This document shows, in pieces, positions 8,336 through 41,618 of a stretch of DNA of 45,312 nt (its first letter is position 1; the number at the start of each line of letters is the position of its first letter). Under the pieces are notes generated by a model that saw nothing but the letters and a program-made list of their open reading frames with translations, did no database searches and was not told the DNA's origin. This stretch comes from Bacteroidaceae bacterium. GTDB lineage: Bacteria; Bacteroidota; Bacteroidia; Bacteroidales; Bacteroidaceae. The stretch is from NCBI GenBank assembly GCA_017424485.1, contig JAFOYZ010000104.1:1-45312 (forward strand), in the 5' to 3' direction. The position numbers and the translations under genes are program-made.

Positions 8336-8391
8336 AACTTTTTGTTTTTAAGTTTATGAGTTATTTTGTTCTTGTTTAGTGTTTAGGTAAT

Positions 8392-8426
8392 TGTCAACTG
8401 ACAACGATCAACAGACAACAATCATT
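8392..8426. repeat. Degenerate heptanucleotide array (NNNCAAC x5) in the ilvN-ilvC spacer
   Basis: Reads tgtcaac|tgacaac|gatcaac|agacaac|aatcatt. Confidence 0.7.
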
Positions 8427-8477
8427 GCTGCTTCGTCGCGGTCAACCTTTACTTTTATTTTAAATTCAGCAAAGCTC

Positions 8478-26441: not shown

Positions 26442-27710
26442 TTATCCCCTACTCTTTCCGCCTACCCGATCAATAGCCACTAGCAGCAATAGCGGGAATA
26501 GCATCCAAAAAGCCGTAGCCACACGCCGTGCTGCCGTCTCATGCGATGACACAGTCAATGCAGCATTATCCTCGATACGCACACTGAGTTGTTCGTCACG
26601 TGGCATATCGATGGCACTCCATTTACCCACGATAGTAGCCTCTTTAAGGACTATTAGCCCAGGGTTAGCTCTGACCATGGTCTTGAGCAAGATATCATCT
26701 GCATTCAAGTAAGGATAGGAGGCTCCAGTACGTTCTGTCCATTGCGCTATAGACTGAGCATTTGACGATGTCAGCATATAGAACTGATGACCACCTACCT
26801 TAGCATAGTCGTACAGATCATTGATAACGTCAAGCATTCCTTCGTTTGCTCGCCTGAGTTCATGCGACACCACAAGGAAAGTATAGCCTGGATAATCCAG
26901 CACCTCCCAAGTCACATCCTCTCCTTCAAGCGTCGAAAGATGAAAATCTGCAATGGGAGGCACATACCCCTGACGCACCAGACGACTTTCACGCTTCACA
27001 AAGGTCCACGTAGAATCAGGATAGTCATCAAAAGTAAACGTACGCTGCTCCCCATCCTTCTCCAGCACAAAAAGGGTCTCATATTCATCTTGCGGTGCAT
27101 CTTCAGGTATCGTCATTCCCTCAATCAAGTTGGTACCGATTGCATAAGGGCGGAAGTCCAACACAGGCAAATGCCTCATATTATACCGCATAAATACAGC
27201 AATAGCCACCAAGGCATACACAAAAATCAGCCACTGAGTTCGCTCCGAGATCACCCGCCAGATACGTTTGTGGCATCTCAGCACCACGATAGCCATAAGG
27301 AGTAGTACAACGTTCTTCCCGAAAGTTTGCCAGTTGGTCAACACCAAAGCATCACCAAAGCAACCACAATCACTTACAGGATTTGTCAGCGCCAGCACCA
27401 ACGTCAATGGAGTCATCACTCCAAGGAAAGCAATCATCAGCCAAAGATAGAAGCGCCGATACAGACCAAAGAACAGCGCCACACCCATCACATACTCTAC
27501 TATGATTAAGAGCCATGCACCCAACAACAGCATCCATGGATGCATAGTCAAGCCAAAGGCATCCGCATAGTCGGCCATCTTATACACAGTACCCATAGGG
27601 TCAACAGCCTTCACGAATCCAGAGAAAGCAAACACTAAAGCCAGCGCAAAGCGCAAGGCGTTAATGGTGACACCTGATGCTATGTTAGCAGATTTATTCT
27701 CCAAAGTCAA
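26442..27710 (-). CDS. Membrane protein with an N-terminal DoxX/MauE-like multi-TM domain and a C-terminal thioredoxin-fold-like domain (the family found next to tpiA in Bacteroidales)
   Basis: 422 aa. The start at 27710 is TTG with no nearby in-frame ATG, so the start is uncertain. It overlaps the upstream gene's stop by 17 nt. Confidence 0.6.
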   Translation of the reverse strand: MTLENKSANIASGVTINALRFALALVFAFSGFVKAVDPMGTVYKMADYADAFGLTMHPWMLLLGAWLLIIVEYVMGVALFFGLYRRFYLWLMIAFLGVMTPLTLVLALTNPVSDCGCFGDALVLTNWQTFGKNVVLLLMAIVVLRCHKRIWRVISERTQWLIFVYALVAIAVFMRYNMRHLPVLDFRPYAIGTNLIEGMTIPEDAPQDEYETLFVLEKDGEQRTFTFDDYPDSTWTFVKRESRLVRQGYVPPIADFHLSTLEGEDVTWEVLDYPGYTFLVVSHELRRANEGMLDVINDLYDYAKVGGHQFYMLTSSNAQSIAQWTERTGASYPYLNADDILLKTMVRANPGLIVLKEATIVGKWSAIDMPRDEQLSVRIEDNAALTVSSHETAARRVATAFWMLFPLLLLVAIDRVGGKSRG

Positions 27711-28233
27711 TCTTTATCAGTCCAAATACCGAATAGTTTATCATATCCATATAGTTGGCATCCACACCTTCCGATACAAGTGTTTGCCCCTCATTGCTTT
27801 CAATCTGCTTAGTCCGATATATCTTCATCAATATCAGGTCCGTATACGAACTGATACGCATGCTACGCCAAGCCTCATCATAGTCATGATTCTTGGCTTT
27901 CATCAGATTCAAGGCCTTAGTAGCATATTCATCATACTTAGCCAATGCCACCTCAGGAGACATGTCGTCAGCCTCTGCATAGCCCAATTCGAGCTGAATG
28001 AGAGCTATAATTCCATAGTTCACAATACCTATAAACTCCGACCGTATGCCTTCATCAACCATCGTCTCACCTTTAGTCTCAATGCTACGTATGCGATTAG
28101 CTTTGATAAAGATCTGATCAGTAACCGAGGTGGGACGCATGATACGCCATGCAGCACCATAGTCTTTCAATTTTTTAGCAAATAGATCACGACACGTTGC
28201 GATGATCTGTTCGAATTGTCTGTTTGTATCCAT
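27694..28233 (-). CDS. DUF1599-family protein with an internal duplication
   Basis: Two similar halves (AWRIMRPTSVTDQIFIKANRIRSIE and AWRSMRISSYTDLILMKIYRTKQIE). I prefer the ATG at 28233 (MDTNRQFEQII). The track's start at 28275 translates the heptamer repeat array. Confidence 0.65.
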   Translation of the reverse strand: MDTNRQFEQIIATCRDLFAKKLKDYGAAWRIMRPTSVTDQIFIKANRIRSIETKGETMVDEGIRSEFIGIVNYGIIALIQLELGYAEADDMSPEVALAKYDEYATKALNLMKAKNHDYDEAWRSMRISSYTDLILMKIYRTKQIESNEGQTLVSEGVDANYMDMINYSVFGLIKIDFGE

Positions 28234-28235
28234 AG

Positions 28236-28319
28236 GTTGAGAGTTGAAGGAGAATTCTGAATTCTGAATTGTCATTTGTCATTTGTCAATTGTCATTTGT
28301 CAATTGTCATTTGTCAATT
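28236..28319. repeat. 84-bp spacer made entirely of 12 drifting heptanucleotide units
   Basis: Reads gttgaga|gttgaag|gagaatt|ctgaatt|ctgaatt|gtcattt|gtcattt|gtcaatt|gtcattt|gtcaatt|gtcattt|gtcaatt. It fills the M23-DUF1599 gap and includes two of the three nt of the M23 stop codon. Confidence 0.85.
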
Positions 28320-29172
28320 AATAAAGCCTAAGCACCTGTCCTGGACGCAGGATTGTCTTGGTAGTAATACCATTGAGTTTGCACAGGTTCTTCACTGTAG
28401 TACCCTTACGTGCCGCAATCCGGCCTAGCGAGTCACCACTACGAACCTTATAGTACGTATCAGGATCAGAAGGATCATACACCTTCTTCTTGGGCTTCAT
28501 ATATAAATAGGTATCACCTGTAACATCCTGATTGGGGAAGTCAAACATCAGAGCAGGGTCAAGTGCCTTACCCAACAGTCGAGTCTCAAAATGCAGATGA
28601 GTACCGGTGCTACGTCCCGTATTACCTCCCAGACCTATGGGATCGCCGGCCTTTACTACCTCATTCTCATCCACAAGCTTCTTTGTTAGGTGAGCATATA
28701 AAGTCTCCAGGCCGTTCGCATGACGTATCACCACATAGTTACCATATCCACGTCGCTGATAACTCACATAACGAACCTTTCCATCGAAGGCTGCACGGAT
28801 TGTATCGCCACGCTCCACCTTCACGTCCAATCCATAGTGTATACGACGACGTCGCGGACGATAGCCAAAGATATCCGTAATCTTGGTATTCTCCGTGGGC
28901 ATGCAGAATCCCGTAAGGTCAATGAGAAAAGAGTCGGGTATCACCACATTGGTATACTTATGCGCATACTCATTACTCCACTCAGGATAGAGATCATCGG
29001 CAGGGTATTCATAAGTCTCAGCATGAATGAGACGATTGAGCACTACCGAGTCAATACGCGCCATCTGCTTATCCAAAGGTGCTTGAGCAGCTAGCAAATC
29101 CTGACCGAGGGTTTGCGATGCCACCATCACAAACACGAAGAGAGCAATATTCTTAAGTAGATTGATTTTCAT
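28318..29172 (-). CDS. M23-family peptidoglycan endopeptidase with a C-terminal LysM domain
   Basis: Contains HYGLDV..GNYVVIRH..GTHLHFETR and LysM (YKVRSGDSLGRIAARKGTTVKNLCKLNG). I prefer the ATG at 29172 (MKINLLKN, signal peptide), because the ATG at 29199 lies only 4 nt from the -7 box. Confidence 0.8.
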   Translation of the reverse strand: MKINLLKNIALFVFVMVASQTLGQDLLAAQAPLDKQMARIDSVVLNRLIHAETYEYPADDLYPEWSNEYAHKYTNVVIPDSFLIDLTGFCMPTENTKITDIFGYRPRRRRIHYGLDVKVERGDTIRAAFDGKVRYVSYQRRGYGNYVVIRHANGLETLYAHLTKKLVDENEVVKAGDPIGLGGNTGRSTGTHLHFETRLLGKALDPALMFDFPNQDVTGDTYLYMKPKKKVYDPSDPDTYYKVRSGDSLGRIAARKGTTVKNLCKLNGITTKTILRPGQVLRLY

Positions 29173-29203
29173 TCTTTTACTTTGCGTACGAAATTTCAAA
29201 CTG

Positions 29204-29211
29204 CAAAGTTA
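29204..29211 (-). promoter_or_regulatory. -7 box TAACTTTG for the M23 peptidase operon
   Basis: Minus strand reads TAACTTTGCAG, 31 nt upstream of the ATG at 29172. Confidence 0.45.
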
Positions 29212-29284
29212 GCACATTTATCGCAGATAGCAAAACAGAAGTTTTGATTTATCATTCGCTAACGGTATTAGCCCCTTCGTTCCT

Positions 29285-29311
29285 CGTTCCACGTTAACCG
29301 CTCATCGTTAA
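29285..29311. repeat. 27-bp direct repeat, copy 1 (CGTTCCACGTTAACCGCTCATCGTTAA)
   Basis: 26/27 identical to 29446-29472. The two copies flank the CTAAA-word array. Confidence 0.85.
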
Positions 29312-29354
29312 AGAGTCATCGTCAGCGTTATCGTTGCAGCCCTGGTTGCTTACC

Positions 29355-29424
29355 CTAAACTCTAAACCCTAAACACTACACTCTAAGCACTACACTCTAA
29401 ACACTACACTCTAAACTCTAAACC
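29355..29424. repeat. Heptanucleotide array CTAMRCN x10
   Basis: Reads ctaaact|ctaaacc|ctaaaca|ctacact|ctaagca|ctacact|ctaaaca|ctacact|ctaaact|ctaaacc. It can also be read as a 14-bp unit repeated three times. Confidence 0.85.
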
Positions 29425-29445
29425 GCAGCGCTACTGCTTTGTCAT

Positions 29446-29472
29446 CGTTCCACGTTAACCGTTCATCGTTAA
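29446..29472. repeat. 27-bp direct repeat, copy 2
   Basis: CGTTCCACGTTAACCGTTCATCGTTAA, abutting the ftsQ stop codon. Confidence 0.85.
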
Positions 29473-30201
29473 TCACTTCCTCGTTCCTATCACCTGATTG
29501 CCATAGTCAACATTGATTCGCGAATAGCGATTCCAGCCCACCTCGTTAAGTCCCTTTTCATAGAAGGTCTGCAGTTTGGCAAACTTCTGCTCATAGTTTC
29601 CAGGAGCACCCAATACGATGACATGACTGCCCACACGAGGCACCAGCTCCAGCTCACCACGTCGAGTCACGTTGATCTGCTCTATCTGCGCATTCCATAG
29701 TTCGTCACCTTGCAGATAAAGCGCAAGTTCCAGCAACTCCTTCTTAGCGAAATCGCGCGTGATATATCCCGTAGCCACAGGCACATATACCGCCTTGGCT
29801 ATACGTTCTATCACCTCTCCCTCCTCATCAAGGTAGTAGCTCTCCCCCCCATTGGTCATGACACGCAAGATAGGCCGCCGGCACTTTACCTCCACCACCA
29901 CATATCCACCTATAGTCTTATAACATTCGCTCGACGCGATAAGCGGTGACGCCTCCAGAGCGTCCTCTATGGCATGCAAACTGACTTCCTCAAGTGGTCT
30001 GCCCGTAGGGTTGAGATCGCTTTTAGCCAGCAAAGCTACCACATCAGTGGTGTTCATATACCCAGTCTCCAGGCTATCACGCATCTCAAGCCGAACACCT
30101 TTGCACACCTGCCCTGTAGGCTTGCTACATAGAGCGATTGCAGCAAAGGCAATGTAGCCAACCAACAAGACAAGGACTATAGTGGAAAGTATCTTCTTCA
30201 T
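29473..30201 (-). CDS. ftsQ: Cell division protein FtsQ (POTRA domain)
   Basis: 242 aa with one N-terminal TM helix followed by POTRA/FtsQ-type domains, immediately downstream of murC. Confidence 0.7.
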   Translation of the reverse strand: MKKILSTIVLVLLVGYIAFAAIALCSKPTGQVCKGVRLEMRDSLETGYMNTTDVVALLAKSDLNPTGRPLEEVSLHAIEDALEASPLIASSECYKTIGGYVVVEVKCRRPILRVMTNGGESYYLDEEGEVIERIAKAVYVPVATGYITRDFAKKELLELALYLQGDELWNAQIEQINVTRRGELELVPRVGSHVIVLGAPGNYEQKFAKLQTFYEKGLNEVGWNRYSRINVDYGNQVIGTRK

Positions 30202-30304
30202 ACATTAATATTAAAAGTTAAGAATTAAAGGTCAAAAGCTAAAACTAAGGGCACCTATCTTGATTTATAGTTCCCGCCTGTTCTAATCTTCAGTTTATAA
30301 TTTT

Positions 30305-31684
30305 TTAATTCTTCAGAATCTTTGTTATCTCAGTGGCGTAATTCTCAATATCACCAGCCCCAAGCGTCACGAGCACCTCCAATTCATCTTTCTTAGCCTC
30401 CACAGTGGCGAGCACATCACACTTGTTTATCATCTGTTTCTGCACATGCTCTGCCAGATTATCGTATATGAGTTGGCTGGTCACACCGGGGATAGGCAGT
30501 TCACGAGCAGGATATATATCGGTAAGGATTACCTCATCAAAGAGCGAGAGACTCTCGGCAAACTCACGATAGAAGTCCTGTGTACGCGAATAGAGGTGAG
30601 GCTGGAATATGGCAGTCACCTTACGTCCTGCATACAGTTCACGTATCGAGAGAGCGCTCTGCCAGATTTCGGCCGGATGATGGGCATAGTCGCTGAGATA
30701 CACCTTCGCCTCACTCTTCAGTTTGAAGTCGAAGCGGCGTTCCACACCGCGGAAGCTCTCCATACCTATACGCAACTCCTCATCAGCAACTCCCGCCAAC
30801 CGAGCCATCGCCATAGCCGCCACTCCATTATCGATATTGACACTCAAGGGCACACCAAGATGAATATCCTTGACCACACCTTCGGGGTGAACGAAGTCAA
30901 TCACAATCTCGCCCCCTCCAATACGGATGTTATCGGCATGATAGTCGCCCTTGGCACGAGAATAGGTATATACACGCACTCCCGGCTGCACCTGTGGCTT
31001 TATCTCCAGCCCCTCGTGAATGATGAGCACACCGTCCGGGCGGATGAGCGAGGTATATTTCTCGAAACTCTCCCAGTAAGCCTCTGGCGTACCATAGATA
31101 TCCAGGTGATCTGGATCTGTAGAGGTGATTACCGACATGTAGGGACGCAGTTGATGGAACGAGCGGTCAAACTCATCGGCCTCGATCACCACATAGTCAC
31201 TCTTGTCAGTCAGCAGCAGATTGGTACCATAGTTCTGCGATATGCCACCCAGAAAAGCCGTTGTCCCCACATGAGAGCCATAGATAAGGTGGGCTGCCAT
31301 GGTCGATGTAGTCGTCTTTCCATGCGTACCCGCCACACACAGACCTCGGCGGCTGCGAGTGATGGTACCCAACAATTGGGCACGTTTCTGTATCTCGAAG
31401 CCCTGTTCGCGAAACCACGTGAGTTCACTATGATCTTGTGGTACCGCAGGCGTATACACCACCAAGGTATGCGCCTTGTCTTTGCAGCTATCGGGAATCA
31501 TCGCACAGTCATCCTCATAATGGATAGCCGCACCTTCTGCATTGAGGCGCTCGGTGAGTTCACTGGCCGTACGGTCATACCCCGCCACCACCTTGCCTAA
31601 TGACAAGAAGTAACGCACCAAAGCACTCATACCGATGCCACCAGCACCAATGAAATATACAGACTTTATCGAATCAATCTCCAT
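30305..31684 (-). CDS. murC: UDP-N-acetylmuramate--L-alanine ligase
   Basis: 459 aa with GAGGIGMSAL and GTHGKTTTSTM motifs and Mur ligase middle and C-terminal domains. Confidence 0.92.
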   Translation of the reverse strand: MEIDSIKSVYFIGAGGIGMSALVRYFLSLGKVVAGYDRTASELTERLNAEGAAIHYEDDCAMIPDSCKDKAHTLVVYTPAVPQDHSELTWFREQGFEIQKRAQLLGTITRSRRGLCVAGTHGKTTTSTMAAHLIYGSHVGTTAFLGGISQNYGTNLLLTDKSDYVVIEADEFDRSFHQLRPYMSVITSTDPDHLDIYGTPEAYWESFEKYTSLIRPDGVLIIHEGLEIKPQVQPGVRVYTYSRAKGDYHADNIRIGGGEIVIDFVHPEGVVKDIHLGVPLSVNIDNGVAAMAMARLAGVADEELRIGMESFRGVERRFDFKLKSEAKVYLSDYAHHPAEIWQSALSIRELYAGRKVTAIFQPHLYSRTQDFYREFAESLSLFDEVILTDIYPARELPIPGVTSQLIYDNLAEHVQKQMINKCDVLATVEAKKDELEVLVTLGAGDIENYATEITKILKN

Positions 31685-31730
31685 GTTTCTTTCTCCTTAT
31701 TATACCTTATATATACCTTTCTCAATTTAG

Positions 31731-31758
31731 CTGCGAAGATACATAAAATAATTGACAA
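31731..31758 (-). promoter_or_regulatory. 28-bp promoter module, copy 1 (upstream of murC)
   Basis: The minus strand TTGTCAATTATTTTATGTATCTTCGCAG is identical to 39393-39420. Its -7 box TATCTTCG is at 31734-31741, 49 nt upstream of the murC ATG. Confidence 0.6.
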
Positions 31759-31803
31759 GAGGCTGTGTCGTAAAATTTATTTACGACACAGCCTCTTCTT
31801 TTT
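31757..31803. terminator. Strong hairpin terminator between the OMP pseudogene and the murC promoter
   Basis: AAGAGGCTGTGTCGTAAA-ATTTA-TTTACGACACAGCCTCTT (18-bp perfect stem). It is followed by CTTTTT on the plus strand and ATTATTTTA on the minus strand. Confidence 0.55.
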
Positions 31804-31932
31804 ATCACTCCAAAAGGCACAAACTCGTTATTCTAAAGTACCATTTACGCTTACCGATTATTTTAGCAAATCCAAGAAGTGATTAACGAAGTCAAGGTAT
31901 AACATGAAACAATCGTAATTAGTGCGGCAGTC

Positions 31933-32759
31933 TTATAATCCTATTCCCACAGACAAGCCGAAGGAGCACAAATGCCTCTTTCCATCCATATACGAGAGAG
32001 AGTTGACTCCACCAGGATACTTCAGATAGTCTCCATCTTTATAATAGCCATTCATGATAAACTTGCCATAAGCACGCACATTAAGGTCTACAGTTCCCAA
32101 CGGGAAGCAATACCCTACAGCCCCATGTCACCTGAGTTTCAAGCGTACCTTGATTATCAGTCACGTCATATTCTCCAAATCCATGATTGGGCAAATCTTT
32201 CAGCTCCACATTATACTTGGGATAGTAGCCCGACAATGTCACCTGGCCGGAGACCGTGTTATATTCGCACTTCATTGGAATAACGAGTCCCGGTCCCACA
32301 TTCACAAATACATTGCCAACCTTGTATTGGTAGAAGACCGGGATTTCTATAAGGTTGATGGTCTGCATCTCCTTGCATCACGGGCATGGGCCTTATAGCT
32401 CAGGTTGTCACCTTCATCATCTACAGCGTTACACTTGTAGAAAAACTCTTCAGATTCCAAGGTGCGTTTCTCCTGTCCATAGTGAATGCCTAGTCCGACA
32501 CCTCCATTCCAGTTTATAGGAAATAGATTTCTATACCAGCACCATACTTCGTTCCTCCATACATCGGTATCTCAGCACCAGATGTAGCATGTACACTCTC
32601 TATAGAAGCAGCTATCATGAAATGCCTCTCCCTACTTCTTTCCCTCTTCTGTACAGGTGCTACACCGCCTTTCGACACATAAAGGCTTTCGTAATCGTAT
32701 AGTGCACAGGTCTCGGCGGCCGCCAATAAACAAAGGCATGCCGTTAGTATATATTTCAT
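31933..32759 (-). pseudogene. Outer-membrane beta-barrel (porin-family, OMP_b-brl-like) gene disrupted by at least 3 frameshifts
   Basis: The signal peptide MKYILTACLCLLAAAETCA starts at 32759. The reading frame must switch near 32514, near 32375 and near 32120 to give one alternating-strand beta-barrel protein ending FGLSVGIGL-stop at 31933. At least two of the shifts lie in short C/G runs. Confidence 0.6.
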
Positions 32760-32798
32760 TATTCTCATTCTATTACGCCGACGAAAACCGTTTAGCGT

Positions 32799-32819
32799 GG
32801 AACGAGGAACGAGGAACCG
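32799..32819. repeat. Heptanucleotide array GGAACGA x3
   Basis: Reads ggaacga|ggaacga|ggaaccg. Its reverse complement (CGTTCCTCGTTCC) also occurs at 29279-29290 and 29478-29488. Confidence 0.6.
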
Positions 32820-32909
32820 AAGGTCGCTGGCGCAAGGGAAAAGCAACGAGGAGCGATGAAATGGGCATTTTTTAAGGATTCGCGCACGCGCACCTTGCAT
32901 TTTTGGAGA

Positions 32910-32970
32910 AAAAAAGTTTTATTTTTGGCCTGGCAGAGTGCAGCGAAGTGCGCTTCGCTGCAACGTTGAC
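32910..32970. repeat. Left terminal inverted repeat (61 bp)
   Basis: AAAAAAGTTTTATTTTTGGCCTGGCAGAGTGCAGCGAAGTGCGCTTCGCTGCAACGTTGAC. It contains the hairpin GCAGCGAAG-TGCG-CTTCGCTGC. Confidence 0.9.
32920..32927 (+). promoter_or_regulatory. Inward-facing -7 box TATTTTTG inside the left TIR
   Basis: Exact TAnnTTTG match. The mirror copy lies at 35139-35146 on the minus strand in the right TIR. Confidence 0.35.
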
Positions 32971-33129
32971 GGCAGCGCGGAACATTAGCGCTGATTGCGA
33001 CGGCAACGCGGCATGATAGCGTTGCTTGTGACGACGGGAGATTTATCCCCTCAAAGGAACGCGCTTTAGCACCATAAGATTTGTCGGCACCAAGGAGAAG
33101 TCAAGTGCAGCATTGCAACTTGTTTTTTT
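32935..33129 (+). ncRNA. Hypothetical ~195-nt small RNA (TIR promoter to terminator)
   Basis: Bounded by the -7 box at 32920-32927 and the terminator at 33102-33129. The region is GC-rich with local hairpins (e.g. GCAACGC-9 nt-GCGTTGC at about 33003-33027) and has no ORF longer than 18 codons. Confidence 0.25.
33102..33129 (+). terminator. Intrinsic terminator inside the cassette
   Basis: CAAGTGCA-GCAT-TGCA(A)CTTG followed by TTTTTTT. Confidence 0.5.
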
Positions 33130-33214
33130 GCTTTTGAGAAGTTCTTTTTCCTAATTCTCAGGTTCAGGGAATACGCATTATAAAAAACATTCAAGTTTTC
33201 CGTTGCTTTTTCCC

Positions 33215-33233
33215 TCACGCGAATTTCGCGTGA
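33215..33233. promoter_or_regulatory. 19-bp perfect palindrome, operator-like
   Basis: TCACGCGAA-T-TTCGCGTGA. Confidence 0.4.
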
Positions 33234-33325
33234 AATATTGACTCATAAGTTGAGAGATAAGTAAGGTTTCATTCGAGAAAAATGAGAATGCGTTTTTCCC
33301 TATTCACAGGTTTCACTTATCGCCA

Positions 33326-33402
33326 CCCCTGCAGGGGTAATAGTTTATCCCTGCAAGGGTAATATTTTCTCCCTGCAAGGGTAGCGTGTTATCCCTGCAG
33401 GG
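33326..33402. repeat. Four iteron-like direct repeats with 22-bp phasing
   Basis: CCCTGCA(A/G)GGG cores start at 33327, 33349, 33371 and 33393. Units 1 and 4 are perfect palindromes (CCCCTGCAGGGG, CCCTGCAGGG). Spacers begin with TA and are T-rich. An AT-rich stretch follows at about 33403-33480. Confidence 0.8.
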
Positions 33403-33525
33403 ATAACAACAAATAGAACCATAGAATAATGGAAATCTATTGTTCCATATTAGTCAAACGAACCATCCTTTTTATTTTCAAGCGTGCTGATTGACTAGGT
33501 ATTGACTTTGGGGGTATTAATGTTG

Positions 33526-33533
33526 TAACTTCG
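33526..33533 (+). promoter_or_regulatory. -7 box TAACTTCG for the VapE-like gene
   Basis: TAACTTCGCAAC lies 149 nt upstream of the ATG at 33683. Confidence 0.4.
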
Positions 33534-33644
33534 CAACGAAAACAGAGTTTTCAACGATAACGAAGACGATGACGAAAACTTTTTTCTGTAGCGTATCAAA
33601 TGCAGAATAAATGGGGTTGATGGCACAGTACCTTTGTACTGTCA

Positions 33645-33659
33645 GACGATAACGAAAAC
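33645..33659. repeat. Inner inverted repeat, left copy (GACGATAACGAAAAC)
   Basis: Exact reverse complement of 35084-35098, 24 nt upstream of the ORF start. Confidence 0.8.
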
Positions 33660-33682
33660 TTATATATTATATAATAGAAGCA

Positions 33683-35029
33683 ATGAAGAAGTTATTTACA
33701 AAAGCATTCGAGTGGCTGCGAAGAAGAGTAACAGCGCTTAAGGACACGCGAAGTGTGTACGCTAACGCTAACGTTAACGATGACAACAACGATTGTGATA
33801 ACGTTAACTGTTCCGTGAAAAGTGAAGCACTTCAAGGGAGCTCCCTCAACTCTCAACCTTCATCCATTAGCAACACCAATCACGACCCGCTGCTGCTACG
33901 CATCGAGGAGTTCATCGGGGAGCATTATCGGGTGCGCTTCAATGCGCTATCGCAGCAACACGAGATCAGCAGACGTGATGCCGAGCGATGGATGCCTGTA
34001 AGCAGCATGCAATGTAACCGCTTGGTGATGGAGCTGAACCGTGCGGGTATCATCCTGGCAAAACCGTACCTAGTAAAAACGGTGATAGAGGGGGGCACAC
34101 TGGCCGAGGAGTATCACCCCGTGCGAAGCTACTTGACGACGTTGCCCGAATGGGACGGCGTGGAGCGTATAGAAGCACTCTTCCGCCGGGTGACCGATGA
34201 TGAGCAACTGCTCCGCTGGTTGCGCAAGTGGTTCATCGCCATGGTGGCACAGGCACTGAACCGTATGGGAGCGTATGGCAACAGCGTGTGCCCTATACTC
34301 ATCAGTAGCGTACAAGGATGGGGCAAGAGCCAGTTTGCCAAACTGCTGGTGCCGCCACAGCTGAGAGGCGCCTTTACCGACACCTTCAATCTGCAGCAGG
34401 AGGACGGCTGTCTGCGTCGCATGACAGCCTACATGCTCGTCAATGTGGATGAGATTGACCGGTTCGGCGACCGCCGAATGTCGACCTTCAAGAATATGGT
34501 GCAACTGGCTACGGTATCGATGAAGCGTGCCTATCACACACAGATGGAGGAGAAGGAACGCATGGCCTCGTTCATCGCCACGAGCAACCGACGCCATCTG
34601 CTCAATGACGAGAGTGGTAGCCGCCGCTTCATCTGTGTGGAACTAGCACATGCCATTGATGTGACTACTCCTTTGGACCATGCCCAACTCTATGCCGAGG
34701 CATTGGCTGCGATCGAAAGCGGTGAACGCTGCTGGTTCACCGAAGAGGAGACGCGCGAACTGGAAGCACACAACAATTCCTTTGCCACCAGCCAAGGGGT
34801 ATGGGCATTAATGAAGCGCAGCCTCACACTGCGCGACATTCCTGAAGGGAACGAGGAGCGACAGACGCAACTATACTCGGCCAACGAGGTGTACGATTAT
34901 CTGCACCAACAGTCGCCCTCGGCCATGAGCGGCATCGAGCGCAGCACCTTCGGGTACTTCCTCACCGAGTTTGGGGCACAACAGGTGAGGGTGAGGAACA
35001 AGAGAGTTTATGGCGTTAGCTTAGGCTAA
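33683..35029 (+). CDS. VirE/VapE-family P-loop NTPase (D5-helicase-like) with a DUF3874-like C-terminus
   Basis: 448 aa with Walker A SSVQGWGKS (nt 34313-34330), Walker B MLVNVDEID and a downstream ATSN..SGSRRF motif typical of VapE. The first ~67 aa are low complexity and are encoded by repeat words. Confidence 0.8.
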   Translation: MKKLFTKAFEWLRRRVTALKDTRSVYANANVNDDNNDCDNVNCSVKSEALQGSSLNSQPSSISNTNHDPLLLRIEEFIGEHYRVRFNALSQQHEISRRDAERWMPVSSMQCNRLVMELNRAGIILAKPYLVKTVIEGGTLAEEYHPVRSYLTTLPEWDGVERIEALFRRVTDDEQLLRWLRKWFIAMVAQALNRMGAYGNSVCPILISSVQGWGKSQFAKLLVPPQLRGAFTDTFNLQQEDGCLRRMTAYMLVNVDEIDRFGDRRMSTFKNMVQLATVSMKRAYHTQMEEKERMASFIATSNRRHLLNDESGSRRFICVELAHAIDVTTPLDHAQLYAEALAAIESGERCWFTEEETRELEAHNNSFATSQGVWALMKRSLTLRDIPEGNEERQTQLYSANEVYDYLHQQSPSAMSGIERSTFGYFLTEFGAQQVRVRNKRVYGVSLG

Positions 35030-35083
35030 CGCCAACGATGACGATAACGTTGACGTTAACTAAGCATCCGACAGACAGTCTTC

Positions 35084-35098
35084 GTTTTCGTTATCGTC
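35084..35098. repeat. Inner inverted repeat, right copy
   Basis: GTTTTCGTTATCGTC, overlapping the inner edge of the right TIR. Confidence 0.8.
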
Positions 35099-35156
35099 AA
35101 CGTTGCAGCGAAGCATGCTTCGCTGCACTCTGCCAGGTCAAAAATAAAACTTTTTT
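35096..35156. repeat. Right terminal inverted repeat (61 bp)
   Basis: Reverse complement of 32910-32970 with 4 mismatches. Its internal 22-bp perfect palindrome is GCAGCGAAGCATGCTTCGCTGC. Confidence 0.9.
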
Positions 35157-35157
35157 A

Positions 35158-35199
35158 CTCGGTGAAAAGGCCTATTTTGTGCCTTTTCACCGAGTTTTT
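35158..35199 (+). terminator. Strong intrinsic terminator immediately outside the right TIR
   Basis: CTCGGTGAAAAGGC-9 nt-GCCTTTTCACCGAG (14-bp perfect stem) followed by TTTTT. Confidence 0.7.
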
Positions 35200-35236
35200 C
35201 TAACTTGATGCCTCTTCTAAATCTATATTTCATAGC

Positions 35237-35276
35237 AATCACGCTGGGCGCTACAGATGCAGCGCCCAGCGTGATT
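35237..35276. other. 15-bp perfect-stem hairpin 45 nt downstream of the ftsW stop
   Basis: AATCACGCTGGGCGC-10 nt-GCGCCCAGCGTGATT with no adjacent T-run. It may be an RNA 3'-end stabiliser or a recombination site; function unknown. Confidence 0.35.
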
Positions 35277-35320
35277 ATGCAAACCAGAATAAGTAATTAC
35301 GTGAACAGCACTTTGCGTAT

Positions 35321-36571
35321 CTATGCATTCACAATCGATGAATCTCTCAAGATTTCAGGGATATCATCCTCGGCCTGTTCGGCTGCAGCAGCTTGGGCAT
35401 CGCGAGCCATCTTCTCGGTATGGTAGCTGACGCTGAGTATCATGCCGATATAGCAGCAATTGATGATGGTAGAGGTTCCTCCTCGGCTTATCAGCGGAAG
35501 GGGCTGACCGGTAACAGGGAAGAGGCCTACAGCAACCATCATATTGAGCATGGCCTGTGCCACAAGCATCAGCGCACAACCCATGACCAGGAACGCAGGG
35601 AAATACCCTCGACACCTCTGCGCTATCTTGGCCGCTCGTATGAGCAAGATAATATAGAGCATCACCACAAAGGCACCTCCTAGCAGGCCTGTCTCTTCGA
35701 TGATGATGGCAAAGATAAAGTCGGAATAGGCCTGAGGCAGATAGTCGCGCTCCACAGAGTTGCCCGGACCGCGACCTATGATATTGCTCGATGCAATGGC
35801 CATCGCGGCATGCGACTCCTGATAGTTCTCGTCGGTAATCTTATACTGTGCGGCGGGGATAGCATCAGAATCACCAAAACGCTGGATACGTGCCTGCCAG
35901 GTGACGAGTCGATTAAGGCCCTGAATCTTGCCTAATGTCTTACTAGGTACGAAGAGCAACACAGAAAGGAAGAGTGCAGCAGCGGCACATAACGCGAAGA
36001 ATAGTTTGAGTAACTGACGCATGGGTACACGACCTACATACATCATCAGACATACCACGCCGAAGAGCAATACAGCGGTAGAGAGGTTTTCAGGTGCGAT
36101 GAGTCCACACACGATAATGGTCATCCAGAGTATCCACTTCATGGCATTGGGTGTAGCACCATCCTCTGTCTGCATACGTGATAGGATAACTGCCGTACCC
36201 ATGACCACGCCCACCTTGGCAAACTCAGAAGGCTGTATGGTAAAGCCTGCAACCCTCATCCATCTGGCGGCATCATTGACATCGACTCCTTTTAGCAAGA
36301 CCCATATCAACATGCATATAGATGCCGGAACAAGCACAAGCGGTATGGTCTTATAGAAACGGTAAGGGATAAGATGAGCTACATAGACCACGCCCAAACC
36401 CAAGAACAAGTAGGTACTATGCTGGCGGATAGGCCACCAGTAATTACCACCACTCTTATAGGTAAGCATACTAGCCGCACTGAACACCTCCACTATAGAG
36501 ATGAGTAGCAGCAACATGAATACCACCCACACGACTTTGTCGCCACGAAATATTCGATTCAGAAAATCCAT
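35321..36571 (-). CDS. ftsW: SEDS-family peptidoglycan glycosyltransferase FtsW
   Basis: 416 aa with about 10 TM helices and PLPLISRGGTS. It lies between murD and the position where murG would be. Confidence 0.88.
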   Translation of the reverse strand: MDFLNRIFRGDKVVWVVFMLLLLISIVEVFSAASMLTYKSGGNYWWPIRQHSTYLFLGLGVVYVAHLIPYRFYKTIPLVLVPASICMLIWVLLKGVDVNDAARWMRVAGFTIQPSEFAKVGVVMGTAVILSRMQTEDGATPNAMKWILWMTIIVCGLIAPENLSTAVLLFGVVCLMMYVGRVPMRQLLKLFFALCAAAALFLSVLLFVPSKTLGKIQGLNRLVTWQARIQRFGDSDAIPAAQYKITDENYQESHAAMAIASSNIIGRGPGNSVERDYLPQAYSDFIFAIIIEETGLLGGAFVVMLYIILLIRAAKIAQRCRGYFPAFLVMGCALMLVAQAMLNMMVAVGLFPVTGQPLPLISRGGTSTIINCCYIGMILSVSYHTEKMARDAQAAAAEQAEDDIPEILRDSSIVNA

Positions 36572-36605
36572 CGATTTGATTTACGATTTATAAATTTATT
36601 TTTAT

Positions 36606-36721
36606 GGAGTTCAGGAGTCAGGAGTGACGCTTCGCTTAGGAGTGCAGACAATAGCGAAGCACTTGGCTATCGCGTAACTGCGGTATTGTCTGAACTCCTG
36701 AACTTCTGACTTCTGTACTCC
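36606..36721. repeat. GGAGT/ACTCC-word palindromic element, copy B (murD-ftsW spacer)
   Basis: The plus strand begins GGAGTTCAGGAGTCAGGAGT..AGGAGTGCAGACAATAGCGAAGC and ends ..CTGCGGTATTGTCTGAACTCCTGAACTTCTGACTTCTGTACTCC. The arms pair over ~40 bp, and several pairs are G-U only in the plus-strand RNA. Confidence 0.8.
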
Positions 36722-36728
36722 TAAATAA

Positions 36729-38060
36729 CTACAATTTTCTCACACACTCCTTAAATTGCACGCCACGGTCTTCGTAACTCTTGAAGAGATCGAAGCTGGC
36801 GCAACAGGGACTGAGCAATACAGCCTCACCCTTCTGTGCCATGCGGTAGGCTGCATCGACAGCATCCTGCATGCTCTGCACATCGGCTACGGGCAATCCG
36901 AAGGGATCGAAGAAGGCGTGCAACTTCTCATTGTGCAAACCCATATAGATGAGTCCTACACACTTCTCGCGTACGAGATCAGCTATTTCCGTATAGTCGT
37001 TACCTTTGTCCTTGCCACCAAGAATGAGGATCGTCTTCTGTGTCATGCTCTGCAGAGCATACCAGCAGCTGTTAACGTTGGTTGCCTTGGAGTCGTTGAT
37101 ATAGTCGACCCCACGCACACGAGCCACATATTCGAGCCGATGCTCCACACCCTTAAATGTGGCTAAGGCCTGACGTATCACCTCTTTCTGGATACCCGAA
37201 AGTGAGGCTGAGATACCTGCAGCCATAGAATTATACAGGTTGTGCTTGCCCGTGAGAGCCAGCTCTTCCTGCTCCATATTGAAGGCATAGGGAGCAGCAA
37301 AGTAGAGTTCATCAGCATCAGTGTAGGCCATCACACCATCGCGCTTATCCTCGGCAAAGGGGTACAGCTTGGCATGAATGCCATGCTTGGAGAGCTCACG
37401 CTGAATAATGGGGTCGTCGTTCCAGAAGATGAAGGCATCGTCGTCAGTCTGATTCTGCACGATGCGGAACTTGGCATCCACATACTCCTGCATGTTATGG
37501 TTGTAGCGATCGAGATGGTCGGGCGTGATATTGAGCAAGATGGCGATATTGGCACGGAACTCATACATATTGTCGAGCTGGAAGCTAGACAGCTCTATCA
37601 CATACCAGTCATAGTCACACGTGGCCACCTGATAGGCAAGGCTCTGCCCAATGTTACCTGCAAGGCCCACATTGTAACCTGCACTTTTGAAGATATGGTA
37701 GATGAGCGATGTGGTCGTTGTCTTACCATTACTACCGGTGATACACACCATCTTGGCATTGGTGTAGCGTCCGGCAAACTCAATCTCTGAGATAACGGGT
37801 ATACCCCGCTCTTGTATCTTGAGCATCATGGGGGCATCGGCCGGAATGCCTGGACTCTTGATAATCTCGTCGGCATTGAGAATCAGTGCCTCGGTATGCT
37901 GCCCATCCTCCCATGCTATATGGTACTCCTCGAGCATCTGCTTGTAATGCTCCTTGATCTTCGACATATCGGAAAGGAATACATCGAACCCCTCTTTCTG
38001 TGCCAGGACAGCGGCACCTACGCCACTCTCGCCTCCACCTAATACAACGACTCGCTTCAT
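36729..38060 (-). CDS. murD: UDP-N-acetylmuramoylalanine--D-glutamate ligase
   Basis: 443 aa with GGGESGVGAA and ITGSNGKTTTT motifs. Confidence 0.92.
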   Translation of the reverse strand: MKRVVVLGGGESGVGAAVLAQKEGFDVFLSDMSKIKEHYKQMLEEYHIAWEDGQHTEALILNADEIIKSPGIPADAPMMLKIQERGIPVISEIEFAGRYTNAKMVCITGSNGKTTTTSLIYHIFKSAGYNVGLAGNIGQSLAYQVATCDYDWYVIELSSFQLDNMYEFRANIAILLNITPDHLDRYNHNMQEYVDAKFRIVQNQTDDDAFIFWNDDPIIQRELSKHGIHAKLYPFAEDKRDGVMAYTDADELYFAAPYAFNMEQEELALTGKHNLYNSMAAGISASLSGIQKEVIRQALATFKGVEHRLEYVARVRGVDYINDSKATNVNSCWYALQSMTQKTILILGGKDKGNDYTEIADLVREKCVGLIYMGLHNEKLHAFFDPFGLPVADVQSMQDAVDAAYRMAQKGEAVLLSPCCASFDLFKSYEDRGVQFKECVRKL

Positions 38061-38062
38061 AG

Positions 38063-39343
38063 TTATCTTATCTTCAATGTTATTATCGTCACTGCAGCCA
38101 ATATGATGGTCACAATCCAGAACCGCACGGTAATCTTCGCTTCGTGGAAAAGGGTATCAGGGTGTGTCACCTTGATGCTACAGCCAGGATCGACCTTCTG
38201 CACTTGGGCCACCGAGGTGCGGAAATGGTCATGAATGGGGGTACGCTTGAAAAAGCGTTGCTTTACCCCCTTTTTCTTACCAGCCTTGTAATAGAAACGC
38301 TGGATGATGACAGAGAGACTCTCGACGAAGAACACGCCACAGAGAATAGGGATGAGCAGCTCCTTACGGATAATAATAGCGCTCACAGCAATGATACCTC
38401 CAATGGTGAGGCTGCCCGTATCACCCATGAACACCTGGGCTGGGAAGGCATTGTACCAAAGGAAACCGATGAGGGCCCCCACAAAAGCACATAAGTATAC
38501 CACCAGTTCCTCTGAACCTGGTATATACATGATATTCAGGTAACCGGCCATAGATATATGACTGGACACATAGGCCAATATACCTAGCACTACACCGATA
38601 ATGGCCGAATTGCCAGCCGCCATACCATCCATACCATCATTGAGATTGGCACTGTTTGACACAGCCGTCACCACTAGAATAGTCATAAAGACAAACAAGA
38701 GCCATCCACCCACCTGCTTGTACTCACCTAACCAGTTGAAGGCATCGGCATAGTCGAGGTTGTTGTTCTTGAAGAAGGGGATAGTGGTCTTGGTAGACTT
38801 CTTCGCCTCACTCTTATGCACAATTTCAGTGGCACCAGCCGCACCACGCTGTACTTCTACGTTCTCACGGATAACGGCTTGGTCACTCAAGTAGAGCGTA
38901 AGGCCCACAATAAAACCGAGACCCACCTGACCGATAATCTTGAACATGCCGTGCAGTCCCTCCTTATCACGCTTGAACACCTTGATATAGTCATCGGCAA
39001 AGCCCAAAGCGCCAAGCCACACCGTGGTGACAAGCATGAGTATCATATATACATTGTGAAGCCGGCCGAGCAACAGGCACGGGATGAGTATCGCTGCCAA
39101 GATAATGACACCACCCATCGTAGGAGTACCAATCTTCTGCACGCCAAACGGATCGATGCTTGCATCGCGCTGCGTCTCGGTAATCTGCTGTCGCTTGAGC
39201 ATATCGATAAAGTGCTTACCGAAGATGGTAGACACCAACAGGGCTATGATGATAGCAAGCAGTGAGCGGAACGAGATATAGGTAAACATGCCCGCACCAG
39301 GGACATTCAGTTTGTCAAGATAATTGAAGAGATAGTATAACAT
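38063..39343 (-). CDS. mraY: Phospho-N-acetylmuramoyl-pentapeptide transferase
   Basis: 426 aa, polytopic, with NLNDGMDGMA and FMGDTGSL motifs. Confidence 0.92.
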   Translation of the reverse strand: MLYYLFNYLDKLNVPGAGMFTYISFRSLLAIIIALLVSTIFGKHFIDMLKRQQITETQRDASIDPFGVQKIGTPTMGGVIILAAILIPCLLLGRLHNVYMILMLVTTVWLGALGFADDYIKVFKRDKEGLHGMFKIIGQVGLGFIVGLTLYLSDQAVIRENVEVQRGAAGATEIVHKSEAKKSTKTTIPFFKNNNLDYADAFNWLGEYKQVGGWLLFVFMTILVVTAVSNSANLNDGMDGMAAGNSAIIGVVLGILAYVSSHISMAGYLNIMYIPGSEELVVYLCAFVGALIGFLWYNAFPAQVFMGDTGSLTIGGIIAVSAIIIRKELLIPILCGVFFVESLSVIIQRFYYKAGKKKGVKQRFFKRTPIHDHFRTSVAQVQKVDPGCSIKVTHPDTLFHEAKITVRFWIVTIILAAVTIITLKIR

Positions 39344-39392
39344 TGTAATACAGTTTCTTTAGATACGTATATTCGGGAATCACAAAAATCAA

Positions 39393-39420
39393 CTGCGAAG
39401 ATACATAAAATAATTGACAA
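39393..39420 (-). promoter_or_regulatory. 28-bp promoter module, copy 2 (upstream of mraY)
   Basis: Identical to 31731-31758. Its -7 box TATCTTCG is at 39396-39403, 52 nt upstream of the mraY ATG. Confidence 0.6.
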
Positions 39421-39613
39421 AGTATCATTAACTTTACCGAAGTTCAGCCACATGTGAAGAATAATTACAGGCAAGCTTCATGAGCAGGCTTGGGCAAAGG
39501 GCATCAAAATGTCTTTTACCATATAGAGGGTTCGGAGACGGCTTTCCTATCAGTTAGTTGGCATCATATGTAAAAATAATCTCTCTCATACATCTGCAGA
39601 GAGAAAAAATGTG

Positions 39614-39621
39614 TATATTTG
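39614..39621 (+). promoter_or_regulatory. -7 box TATATTTG for the amidohydrolase/dehydrogenase pair
   Basis: 51 nt upstream of the ATG at 39673. Confidence 0.45.
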
Positions 39622-39672
39622 TTGCATACAACGCGTGAATTATCAATAAAAACAAAAAAAAGAGACTAGGAT

Positions 39673-40590
39673 ATGAATATCATTGATGCACATGCCCACT
39701 TGTGGTTACGACAAGACACGGTGGTGGACGGATTCCCCATACGCACTCTTGAAAATGGACGATCGCTCTTCATGGGTGAGGTTCGCCAGATGATACCTCC
39801 CTTCATGACGGACGGAGTGAACAGCGCAGAGGTATTTCTCTCAAACATGGATTATGCACAGGTATCTGCAGCCGTCATCACGCAGGAGTTTATCGATGGC
39901 ATACAGAATGACTATCTCATGGAGGTTGCCCAACGCTACCCTAACCGCTTTCTCGTATGTGGCATGTGTGAATTCCGCAAACCGGGATTTATGCCCCATG
40001 CCAAAGAACTGCTCGACAAAGGATTTCGAGCTATCAAGATTCCAGCCCAACGTCTATTGTTAAAAGAGGGGCGTGTGATGCTCACCTCTGACGAGATGAT
40101 GCAGATGATGCATCTCATGGAAGAGCGTGAAGCCATACTCTCCATAGATCTTGCCGACGGCAATATACAGGTGGGTGAGATGGAAGAGATTATCAGCGAG
40201 TGCCCCAATCTGAAGATTGCCATCGGACACTTCGGCATGGTGACCCGTGAGGGATGGAAAGAGCAAATCAAACTGGCCAGGCACCGCAATGTGCGTATAG
40301 AGTCGGGGGGTATCACATGGCTATTCAACGATGAGTTCTATCCCTTCAAAGGGGCTATACGCGCTATACGCGAAGCTGCAGACCTTGTCGGCATGGAGAA
40401 ACTGATGTGGGGCTCAGACTATCCGCGCACCATCACTGCCATCACCTACCGCATGAGTTATGACTTCGTCACCAAGAGCAACGAGCTTACCGAAGAGGAG
40501 AAAAGGCTATTCCTCGGCATGAATGCACAAGAGTTCTACGGATTCAATGAATTAGTAGATCTTCCTTATATAAAGAATATGTCAGAATAA
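39673..40590 (+). CDS. Metal-dependent amidohydrolase-2 family hydrolase (lactonase/decarboxylase-like)
   Basis: 305 aa with an N-terminal IDAHAHLW metal-binding HxH motif and a late WGSDYP motif. Confidence 0.7.
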   Translation: MNIIDAHAHLWLRQDTVVDGFPIRTLENGRSLFMGEVRQMIPPFMTDGVNSAEVFLSNMDYAQVSAAVITQEFIDGIQNDYLMEVAQRYPNRFLVCGMCEFRKPGFMPHAKELLDKGFRAIKIPAQRLLLKEGRVMLTSDEMMQMMHLMEEREAILSIDLADGNIQVGEMEEIISECPNLKIAIGHFGMVTREGWKEQIKLARHRNVRIESGGITWLFNDEFYPFKGAIRAIREAADLVGMEKLMWGSDYPRTITAITYRMSYDFVTKSNELTEEEKRLFLGMNAQEFYGFNELVDLPYIKNMSE

Positions 40591-40601
40591 AAGTTTTTCA
40601 T

Positions 40602-41618
40602 ATGAAAGCCATACAAATTAACGCAACTGGACAGGTACAACTAGTAGAACTGCCCCAGCCATCCTATCAGAGCAACGAAATACTAGTAAGGATTGAGTAC
40701 GTAGGATTCTGCGGATCAGACCTCAACACCTTTCTTGGAAGAAATCCCATGGTAAAACTGCCTGTAATACCGGGGCATGAGATAGGAGCAGTCATTGAAG
40801 CGGTGGGCGCTGATGTACCCACGACATTTGTTCCTGGTATGACCGTAACGCTAAACCCCTACACCAACTGCGGATATTGCGCCGCATGCAGGAACGGACG
40901 TACGAATGCATGCGAACATAACGAGACATTAGGGGTACAACGCAACGGAGCCATGTGTGAATACATCGCGGTACCATGGCAGAAGGTGATACCAACAGCA
41001 GGCATCTCATCGCGCGACAGCGCACTCATAGAGCCTATGAGCGTAGGGTTTCATGCCATAAACCGCGCTGCAGTAACCGATGTTGATACGGTAATGGTCA
41101 TCGGATGCGGCATGATAGGAATAGGAGCCATTGTACGTGCCGCCCTACGCGGAGCCACTGTCATTGCAGTAGACATTGACGATGATAAGTTGTCCTTGGC
41201 TCATGAAGTGGGAGCTACCTATACCATCAACAGCCTAACAAAAGATTTGCATGCACGCCTGCAAGCCCTTACGCAAGGCATGGGACCCACCGTAGTCATC
41301 GAGGCCGTAGGCTCTCCCCTCACCTACCAGACAGCCATCACAGAGGTAGCCTTCACAGGACGTGTGGTATACATCGGGTATGCCAAGAGTGACGTATCGT
41401 TTACCACCAAATATTTCGTACAGAAAGAACTCGATATAAGAGGTTCGCGCAATGCCATGCCCGAGGACTTCAGGGCTGTCATACGCTACCTCAATAGGAA
41501 CACATGCCCTATAGAGCGTCTCATCAGTAAGGTCATTGCTCCCGAGGAGGCACACAACGCTCTGCAGCAATGGGCTGAAGAGCCAGGAAAGGTATTCAGG
41601 ATATTGGTAAAGTTTTAA
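40602..41618 (+). CDS. Zinc-dependent medium-chain alcohol/polyol dehydrogenase
   Basis: 338 aa with CGSD..GHEIGAVIEAVG, a structural zinc site (CGYCAACRNGRTNAC) and a VIGCGMIGIG Rossmann motif. Confidence 0.85.
   Translation: MKAIQINATGQVQLVELPQPSYQSNEILVRIEYVGFCGSDLNTFLGRNPMVKLPVIPGHEIGAVIEAVGADVPTTFVPGMTVTLNPYTNCGYCAACRNGRTNACEHNETLGVQRNGAMCEYIAVPWQKVIPTAGISSRDSALIEPMSVGFHAINRAAVTDVDTVMVIGCGMIGIGAIVRAALRGATVIAVDIDDDKLSLAHEVGATYTINSLTKDLHARLQALTQGMGPTVVIEAVGSPLTYQTAITEVAFTGRVVYIGYAKSDVSFTTKYFVQKELDIRGSRNAMPEDFRAVIRYLNRNTCPIERLISKVIAPEEAHNALQQWAEEPGKVFRILVKF

Follow-up and report, generated by a model that had tools for sequence, protein, structure and literature searches.

Probable relocation of murG from a fragmented dcw cluster, and a strain-variable island in its former slot, in an uncultured Bacteroidaceae lineage

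The ftsW-murC interval and its independent assemblies

In a 45,312-nucleotide contig of a Bacteroidaceae bacterium (JAFOYZ010000104.1, assembly GCA_017424485.1), the whole of which is referred to here as the window, part of the division and cell wall (dcw) gene cluster is encoded on the minus strand in the order mraY, murD, ftsW, a gap of 3,636 bp (31685-35320), murC and ftsQ, as identified through NCBIfam and Pfam scans (Table 1). The mraY, murD and ftsW genes are contiguous and co-oriented, as in the canonical dcw order. An earlier note, made from the sequence alone, had reported that murG is missing from its expected slot between ftsW and murC and is replaced there by a VapE cassette and a decayed porin gene, and the analysis presented here bears out both observations. 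Using as queries eight MurG proteins (tblastn) and their genes (blastn), all from relatives, and permissive settings in the gap (tblastn with word size 2 and E-values up to 100; blastn with word size 7), no MurG-like frame or remnant was detected in 31685-35320 or in the whole 45-kb window. The best E-values were 0.058 for tblastn and 0.004 for blastn (a 24-nt match), and all matches were short, none was colinear with murG, and they were taken as noise. The gap does hold a gene assigned to VapE/DUF3874 by Pfam and a pseudogene resembling an outer-membrane protein (OMP), with three frameshifts. The expectation that murG should lie between ftsW and murC is also valid for this group, as six congeners (L016, L005, L002, L021, L047 and L084) carry the full canonical cluster, mraZ-mraW-ftsL-ftsI-murE-mraY-murD-ftsW-murG-murC-ftsQ-ftsA-ftsZ.

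Table 1. Coordinates of dcw genes and of features in and around the ftsW-murC interval of the window.
Feature	Position	Strand	Assignment and remarks
ftsQ	29473-30201	minus	PF03799
murC	30305-31684	minus	TIGR01082, 6e-100
murC leader, 74 nt	31685-31758	minus	Common to L001, not in canonical relatives; carries copy 2 of the 28-nt sequence
28-nt promoter-like sequence TTGTCAATTATTTTATGTATCTTCGCAG, copy 2	31731-31758	minus	Identical to copy 1; 5' of murC
Terminator-like hairpin, perfect 18-bp stem	31757-31797		Closes the OMP-like gene
OMP beta-barrel-like pseudogene	31933-32759	minus	Compared by tblastn and global alignment with the intact L092 allele (279 aa)
Left 66-nt inverted-repeat arm of VapE cassette	32906-32971		Repeat search
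22-nt tandem repeats, iteron-like (CCCTGCARGGGTAAT...)	33327-33408		5' of the VapE gene; kept in other strains
VapE-like/DUF3874 gene, 448 aa	33683-35029	plus	PF05272, 8.7e-32; PF12990, 1.4e-8; convergent with ftsW
Right 66-nt inverted-repeat arm of VapE cassette	35095-35160		92% complementary to 32906-32971; hairpin, then T-run
ftsW	35321-36571	minus	TIGR02614/PF01098
murD	36729-38060	minus	TIGR01087, 7e-125
mraY	38063-39343	minus	TIGR00445, 4.5e-77; first gene of the local dcw fragment
28-nt promoter-like sequence TTGTCAATTATTTTATGTATCTTCGCAG, copy 1	39393-39420	minus	Ends 49 nt 5' of the mraY ATG

The earlier note had offered an assembly join as one cause of this arrangement, and both the metagenomic origin of the sequence and the repeats in the gap (66-nt inverted repeats and tandem repeats) would lend themselves to a chimeric contig in which the assembler joined ftsW and murC via repeated or mobile DNA and lost murG in the join. 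The same junctions were nevertheless recovered from at least seven independently assembled metagenomes, through exact-protein look-ups with the VapE, FtsW, MraY and FtsQ sequences of the window; an exact look-up of its MurC protein returned no record. The 8 kb from 29000 to 37000 are present at 99.8% identity in ERZ28653781 and ERZ28019010 and at ~96% in ERZ28436081, and shorter contigs spanning ftsW-VapE come from at least four further samples (ERZ28653911, ERZ28615426, ERZ28018794 and ERR3393581), so that the arrangement is seen at 95-99.8% identity across assemblies made, to judge from their NODE_, k141_ and scaffold names, with different assemblers. Both breakpoints are moreover common to a sister species, described below, and we regard a chimeric join as exceedingly unlikely.

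Age of the breakpoints and the present location of murG

The closest species representative, L001 (JAGAQY01), shares ~86% DNA identity with the window, with MurC, MurD and MraY proteins at 95-97% identity. Its gene order is mraY-murD-ftsW, a lipoprotein-like gene of 433 amino acids (aa) and a WG-repeat gene of 602 aa, followed by murC-ftsQ-M23-DUF1599-BT_3928, without MurG. DNA homology with L001 is lost in the window at 35316 and regained at 31758, and the interiors of the two slots have no DNA or protein homology outside the common junction sequences. Homology between the window and its canonical relatives ends on the ftsW side at 35343, and homology with L016 on the murC side begins just 3 nt 5' of the murC ATG. 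FtsW terminates in RDSSIVNA in the window, in RDSTIVNASKR in L001 and in DIPEILREE in canonical relatives, in which the ftsW stop overlaps the murG start; the FtsW tail of the window and L001 is a derived one, made at the old ftsW/murG junction. The 74-nt murC leader is also the same in the window and L001.

Since L001 has the same breakpoints around unrelated filler, the exit of murG is older than the VapE and porin-like DNA, and the common derived junctions therefore point to one ancestral event that took murG out, with the filler arriving or being exchanged later. The split is itself derived, because close congeners keep the full mraZ...ftsZ cluster. The earlier note had also considered that close relatives might normally lack murG at this position between the same flanks; this holds for the sister species, while at the level of the genus the canonical order is the ancestral one. 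Its suggestion of a rearrangement associated with the present insertion is not supported, given the unrelated filler of L001 and the variation in slot content among conspecifics. A recent insertion of the VapE/OMP DNA in this particular strain, displacing or deleting murG as it entered, might be read from the typical occurrence of VapE-family genes in mobile elements of Bacteroidales and from the case of L013, a further species in which ftsW faces a convergent VapE-like gene and has no murG beside it. Such an event is nonetheless very improbable: in L001 the breakpoints are the same and murG is likewise missing, although neither the VapE cassette nor the OMP gene is present there, slot content varies within the window's species while murG is always absent, and the gap has no integrase, transposase or flanking direct repeats.

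murG is an essential gene, and given its absence from the slot it must lie elsewhere. The earlier note had reasoned in the same way, and the sister species provides the corresponding observation, a solo murG at another locus of the same genome. Searching with the L016 MurG yielded a group at 97-99% identity that corresponds to the canonical L016 clade, and a next distinct clade at ~91% whose recovered contexts (P0053, P0076, P0067, P0096 and P0184) all represent a single solo locus. In this locus a 104-aa gene and a YgiQ radical-SAM gene lie divergently to murG, which is followed by TPR, TonB-dependent receptor and sugar-kinase genes. The solo MurG contains PF03033 (Glyco_transf_28 N-terminal) and PF04101 (Glyco_tran_28_C), is 90-91% identical to the MurG of L016 and forms, in a neighbour-joining tree, a clade sister to that of L016. 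The window and L001 are together likewise sister to the L016 clade in neighbour-joining trees of MraY, MurD, MurC and FtsW, and these matching positions therefore indicate that the solo murG is a relocated orthologue, not a foreign replacement. On the combined evidence of both domains and orthology, the predicted solo product is a GT28 MurG (lipid II synthase). The solo and canonical murG are homologous over a stretch that starts 3 nt 5' of the ATG and ends 16 nt short of the stop codon; precisely this stretch is what the slot has lost between its two scars.

Slot and solo locus can be assigned to one sister genome because they have a common locus-tag prefix, IJA98. The slot genes of L001 are MBO5084221-84226, including the 433-aa gene (MBO5084224, IJA98_03860), and its solo locus comprises MBO5085537 (YgiQ), 85538 (104 aa, IJA98_08185), 85539 (MurG, P0067) and 85540 (TPR). 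A further metagenome-assembled genome (MAG), with prefix IJ290, shows the same pairing of a murG-less slot with a solo murG. The solo locus also has a second subclade, P0096/P0184, traced to an NCBI MAG of prefix II269. Four of the 14 places listed for P0184/P0096 are in samples that also contain window-type contigs (ERZ28653911, ERZ28019010, ERZ28018794 and ERZ27227521), as against none of the 16 listed for the L001-type subclade. The two solo loci share 83% DNA identity, compared to 86% between the window and L001. The murG belonging to the window's own genome is thus most likely a solo copy of the P0184/P0096 type.

An alternative interpretation would cast the window locus as a second, partial dcw copy in a genome that also harbors an intact canonical cluster with murG, which binning could hide; a canonical-cluster congener does occur in some of the same samples (L085 in ERZ28653911, L091 in ERZ28018794). 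The FtsW and MurC of that congener are, however, only 75% and 89% identical to those of the window, and it looks like a different species; an FtsW scan of species-representative genomes identified one locus in the L001 genome, the murG of the IJA98 genome is in the solo context, and the window genes are intact and 95-97% identical to those of the sister. We consider a second copy highly improbable. An outright loss of murG, with lipid II synthesis taken over by a non-orthologous or horizontally acquired glycosyltransferase, has a counterpart in the alternative lipid II synthase reported for an actinomycete (PMC8092295), but the sister genome encodes a bona fide GT28 MurG with both PF03033 and PF04101, and this protein branches as vertical descent predicts; we assign scarcely any probability to such a loss.

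A shared promoter-like sequence and a proposed history of the locus

The two conserved blocks of the window, mraY-murD-ftsW and murC-ftsQ, are each preceded by an identical 28-nt promoter-like sequence, which lies 47-50 nt 5' of the mraY and murC start codons in both the window and L001. A 21-mer taken from this sequence occurs exactly twice in the window, with zero occurrences expected, and the 28-mer is not found in the canonical-cluster relatives examined. A one-base variant lies 5' of murD in L025, a species in which ftsW precedes rpsL-rpsG, and a variant is also present 5' of murD in L062. Scanning JGI metagenomes for the 28-mer returned two matches only, L062 (L025-like) and L063 (window-like), and no further dcw fragments carrying it. 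Bacteroidetes-type promoters follow a consensus with TAnnTTTG at -7 and TTTG at -33. The 28-mer contains a -7-like box, TATCTTCG, that agrees with five of the six specified positions of TAnnTTTG, and the solo murG has a perfect -7 box, TACTTTTG, ~25 nt 5' of its ATG. A sigma-70 promoter scan identified 9 sites against 5.5 expected, such scans being uninformative for Bacteroidetes. We infer from these features that the 28-mer is a putative promoter, and that each fragment of the cluster would have its own.

The evidence outlined above makes it very probable that the window documents an old, inherited relocation of murG, the vacated slot of which is now an accessory-gene island, as opposed to an assembly error or a fresh insertion. 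Several points weigh against this interpretation or against parts of it. The TATCTTCG box has one mismatch to TAnnTTTG, and its distance to the upstream TTTG is shorter than that of Bacteroides promoters. L025 has the promoter-like sequence, yet falls outside the group formed by the window and L001 in a two-protein neighbour-joining tree, so that interspecies recombination may have contributed to the history. The window's own murG does not lie within its 45 kb, and the link to P0184/P0096 is drawn from phylogenetic position, matching divergence and co-occurrence. Co-occurrence alone is weak evidence, as a canonical-cluster congener (L084-L091) shares some of the samples, and all the genomes involved are MAGs or metagenome contigs.

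In the history that we propose for this relocation, the ancestral dcw cluster (mraZ...ftsZ) of an uncultured herbivore-gut Bacteroidaceae lineage would have been broken up, and the murG open reading frame (ORF) would have left its slot in the common ancestor of the window's species and L001, cut near-exactly at its ends, from the overlap of the ftsW stop and murG start to just before the murC start. The gene would now stand alone behind its own predicted promoter, between the YgiQ radical-SAM/104-aa pair and the TPR/TonB-receptor pair, and the mraY-murD-ftsW and murC-ftsQ blocks would have remained adjacent, each behind the same 28-nt promoter-like sequence. Because such a sequence precedes each block, murC-ftsQ would be freed from read-through from ftsW. 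The vacated ftsW-murC interval would then have become a permissive site for accessory DNA, receiving the 2.25-kb VapE cassette and the frameshifted OMP-like gene in the window, ~42 kb in other strains, and the lipoprotein-like and WG-repeat genes in L001. The route of relocation was presumably either duplication followed by loss or a series of successive inversions.

Slot contents and the wider fragmentation of the cluster

The slot is a strain-variable genomic island between core genes, ranging within the window's species from 3.6 kb (the window, L030 and L033) to ~42 kb, with differing content between the same conserved flanks. The ~42-kb version, seen in ERZ28436053 NODE_149 (L031 13700-21251 and L094 1-8500; ~46.6-88.9 kb of that contig) and in ERZ27227507 k141_357731 (L050 and L093), carries a type VI secretion (T6SS) locus with ClpV, TssC, two TssD and VgrG, in the order VapE cassette, ClpV, TssC, TssD, VgrG, ..., Ser/Thr kinase, WG-repeat, PP2C, MORN, BACON, Bax1-I and murC. 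In L037 the VapE cassette is followed by a WG-repeat gene like that of L001, and L092 and L063 represent further variants. A 286-nt segment of L092, made up of the terminator, the 28-mer and the opening ~170 nt of murC, is directly duplicated (3225-3510 and 8217-8500); the two copies bracket the MORN-BACON-Bax1-I genes, with the intact 279-aa OMP-like allele next to them. Deletion between these repeats could yield the arrangement of the window, and the duplication suggests that slot content turns over by homologous recombination at the murC boundary.

The VapE cassette of the window is a discrete 2,255-bp unit (32906-35160) lying between 66-nt inverted repeats, each arm of which has an internal palindrome and a T-run, and is separated from the ftsW stop by a hairpin-rich spacer of ~160 nt. 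It is present in every strain of the window's species seen and absent from L001; strain L031 parts from the window at 32845, ~60 nt past the left inverted-repeat arm. The protein encoded by the cassette shares no more than 36% identity with members of the VapE/BT4734 family from Bacteroidales plasmids and from small phage-like contigs. Relative to the intact L092 allele, the OMP-like pseudogene has deletions of 1 nt near 32529, 1 nt near 32376 and 11 nt near 32122, all of them frameshifting. Pfam returns no match for the window's own OMP fragments, and the assignment to OMP_b-brl_2 (PF13568) is sub-threshold and comes from longer alleles in other strains only. The region 31685-31800 folds with z = -7.7, and an Rfam scan of 29000-39800 gave as its sole match a Collinsella-1 that was dismissed as sub-threshold, at 21 bits where the gathering score is 35.

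A site-specific integrative element in the gap, whether an integrative and conjugative element, an integrative mobilizable element or a prophage-like one, was considered and rejected for want of an integrase, an att site and a tRNA: no integrase, transposase or recombinase gene was found in the gap, where the VapE/DUF3874 gene is the sole ORF annotated by Pfam, a repeat search detected no att-like direct repeats flanking it, and the only tRNA of the window is at 2540-2615. Like the VapE/BT4734-family primase-helicase-like genes of Bacteroidales plasmids, phage-like and mobilizable elements, the window gene combines VapE-like and DUF3874 domains in a compact unit with iteron-like tandem repeats 5' of the gene. 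It differs from them in lacking the BT4734-like N-terminal domain found in the 732-aa homologue of L013, in being bounded by the 66-nt inverted repeats without partner mobility genes, and in that the unit seems fixed across all seen strains of the species. The slot as a whole resembles Bacteroidales integration hot spots and T6SS islands in its variable interval (3.6 to ~42 kb) between conserved core genes, its mobile-element-type genes (VapE/DUF3874), its T6SS in some strains and its pseudogenes. In contrast to those islands, neither an integrase nor a tRNA target nor att-like direct repeats were found in the window's version, which is bounded by the scars that the relocation of a core gene left behind, and the 286-nt duplication of L092 points to homologous recombination, not site-specific integration.

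The loss of synteny extends beyond murG. With L016 proteins as queries, tblastn gave no match in the window for MurE, FtsI or MraZ, nor for FtsA or FtsZ. The genes normally upstream of mraY (murE, ftsI, ftsL, mraW and mraZ) are missing from the window, where a divergent amidohydrolase gene takes the place of murE 5' of mraY, together with an alcohol dehydrogenase (39344-41618; Pfam), and the M23/LysM peptidase, DUF1599 and BT_3928-family genes lie 3' of ftsQ (26442-30201) instead of ftsA-ftsZ. With murE|mraY, ftsW|murG|murC and ftsQ|ftsA all broken, the cluster has therefore been split at three junctions in this lineage. The best candidate for the ftsA-ftsZ fragment of the lineage, the P0214/P0302 cluster, was rejected because it proved to come from a different congener whose cluster is canonical. 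The spacer between ftsQ and the M23 gene (29200-29472) consists of short repeats, with 14-nt periodic units of the ACCCTAAAC type at 29352-29421 and 31-nt direct repeats at 29281 and 29442; stacks of related copies occur at the L031 island boundary (13736-14160) and near 32780-32860 of the window. The 157-nt murD-ftsW spacer (36572-36728, minus strand) forms a long near-perfect hairpin (-47.6 kcal/mol; z = -6.0 against shuffles), and canonical relatives also have a spacer here, of ~170 nt.

Set against the canonical Bacteroidota cluster, the mraY-murD-ftsW and murC-ftsQ blocks of the window are the same in content and orientation, and their proteins are 85-97% identical to those of L016; the differences lie in the three broken junctions, the placement of murG at another locus and the new leader, with the same 28-nt promoter-like sequence, of each kept block. 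Across ~25 related species, at least six architectures are seen around ftsW (L003, L004, L006-L010, L012-L015, L017 and L025): the canonical one; ftsW-murG followed by unrelated genes; ftsQ and murC divergent from ftsW and murG (ftsQ<murC< >ftsW>murG); murG, ftsQ and murC divergent from ftsW (murG<ftsQ<murC< >ftsW); ftsW followed by the 732-aa BT4734/VapE gene (L013); and murD-ftsW followed by rpsL-rpsG (L025). It is conceivable, although doubtful, that this genus-level group is in a process of active and repeated dcw shattering, with the 28-mer serving as a short, portable promoter module that is copied in front of each new fragment (mraY, murC and the murD of L025). If so, operon fragmentation would be selectively neutral and its junctions would be open to islands such as those carrying T6SS.

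The dcw cluster is among the most stable known, and fragmented versions have been described in several lineages (PMC8871954). As in those cases, an essential syntenic cluster has here been split into working sub-clusters, with the difference that the split in the window is recent and lies within one genus-level group that includes full-cluster relatives. With a split this young and intact clusters in its relatives, the nucleotide sequence still reveals the breakpoints, the scar at the donor site and the gene that moved. The event is of an ordinary kind, a dcw rearrangement, and constitutes another, unusually well documented case of a known type, not a new system. Its value lies in this resolution: a recent event with readable scars and relocated gene, a duplicated promoter-like sequence, and an old junction turned into a site for islands.

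The dcw cluster is often taken as near-invariant and used as a synteny anchor, and its gene order has been linked to the co-ordinated expression of cell-wall and division genes. The case presented here indicates that, within the Bacteroidaceae, dcw synteny cannot be taken for granted, and that an essential gene missing from a MAG contig does not necessarily reflect misassembly or incompleteness. Should the 28-mer prove to be a promoter, the tolerance of essential operons to being split would have a simple and testable explanation.

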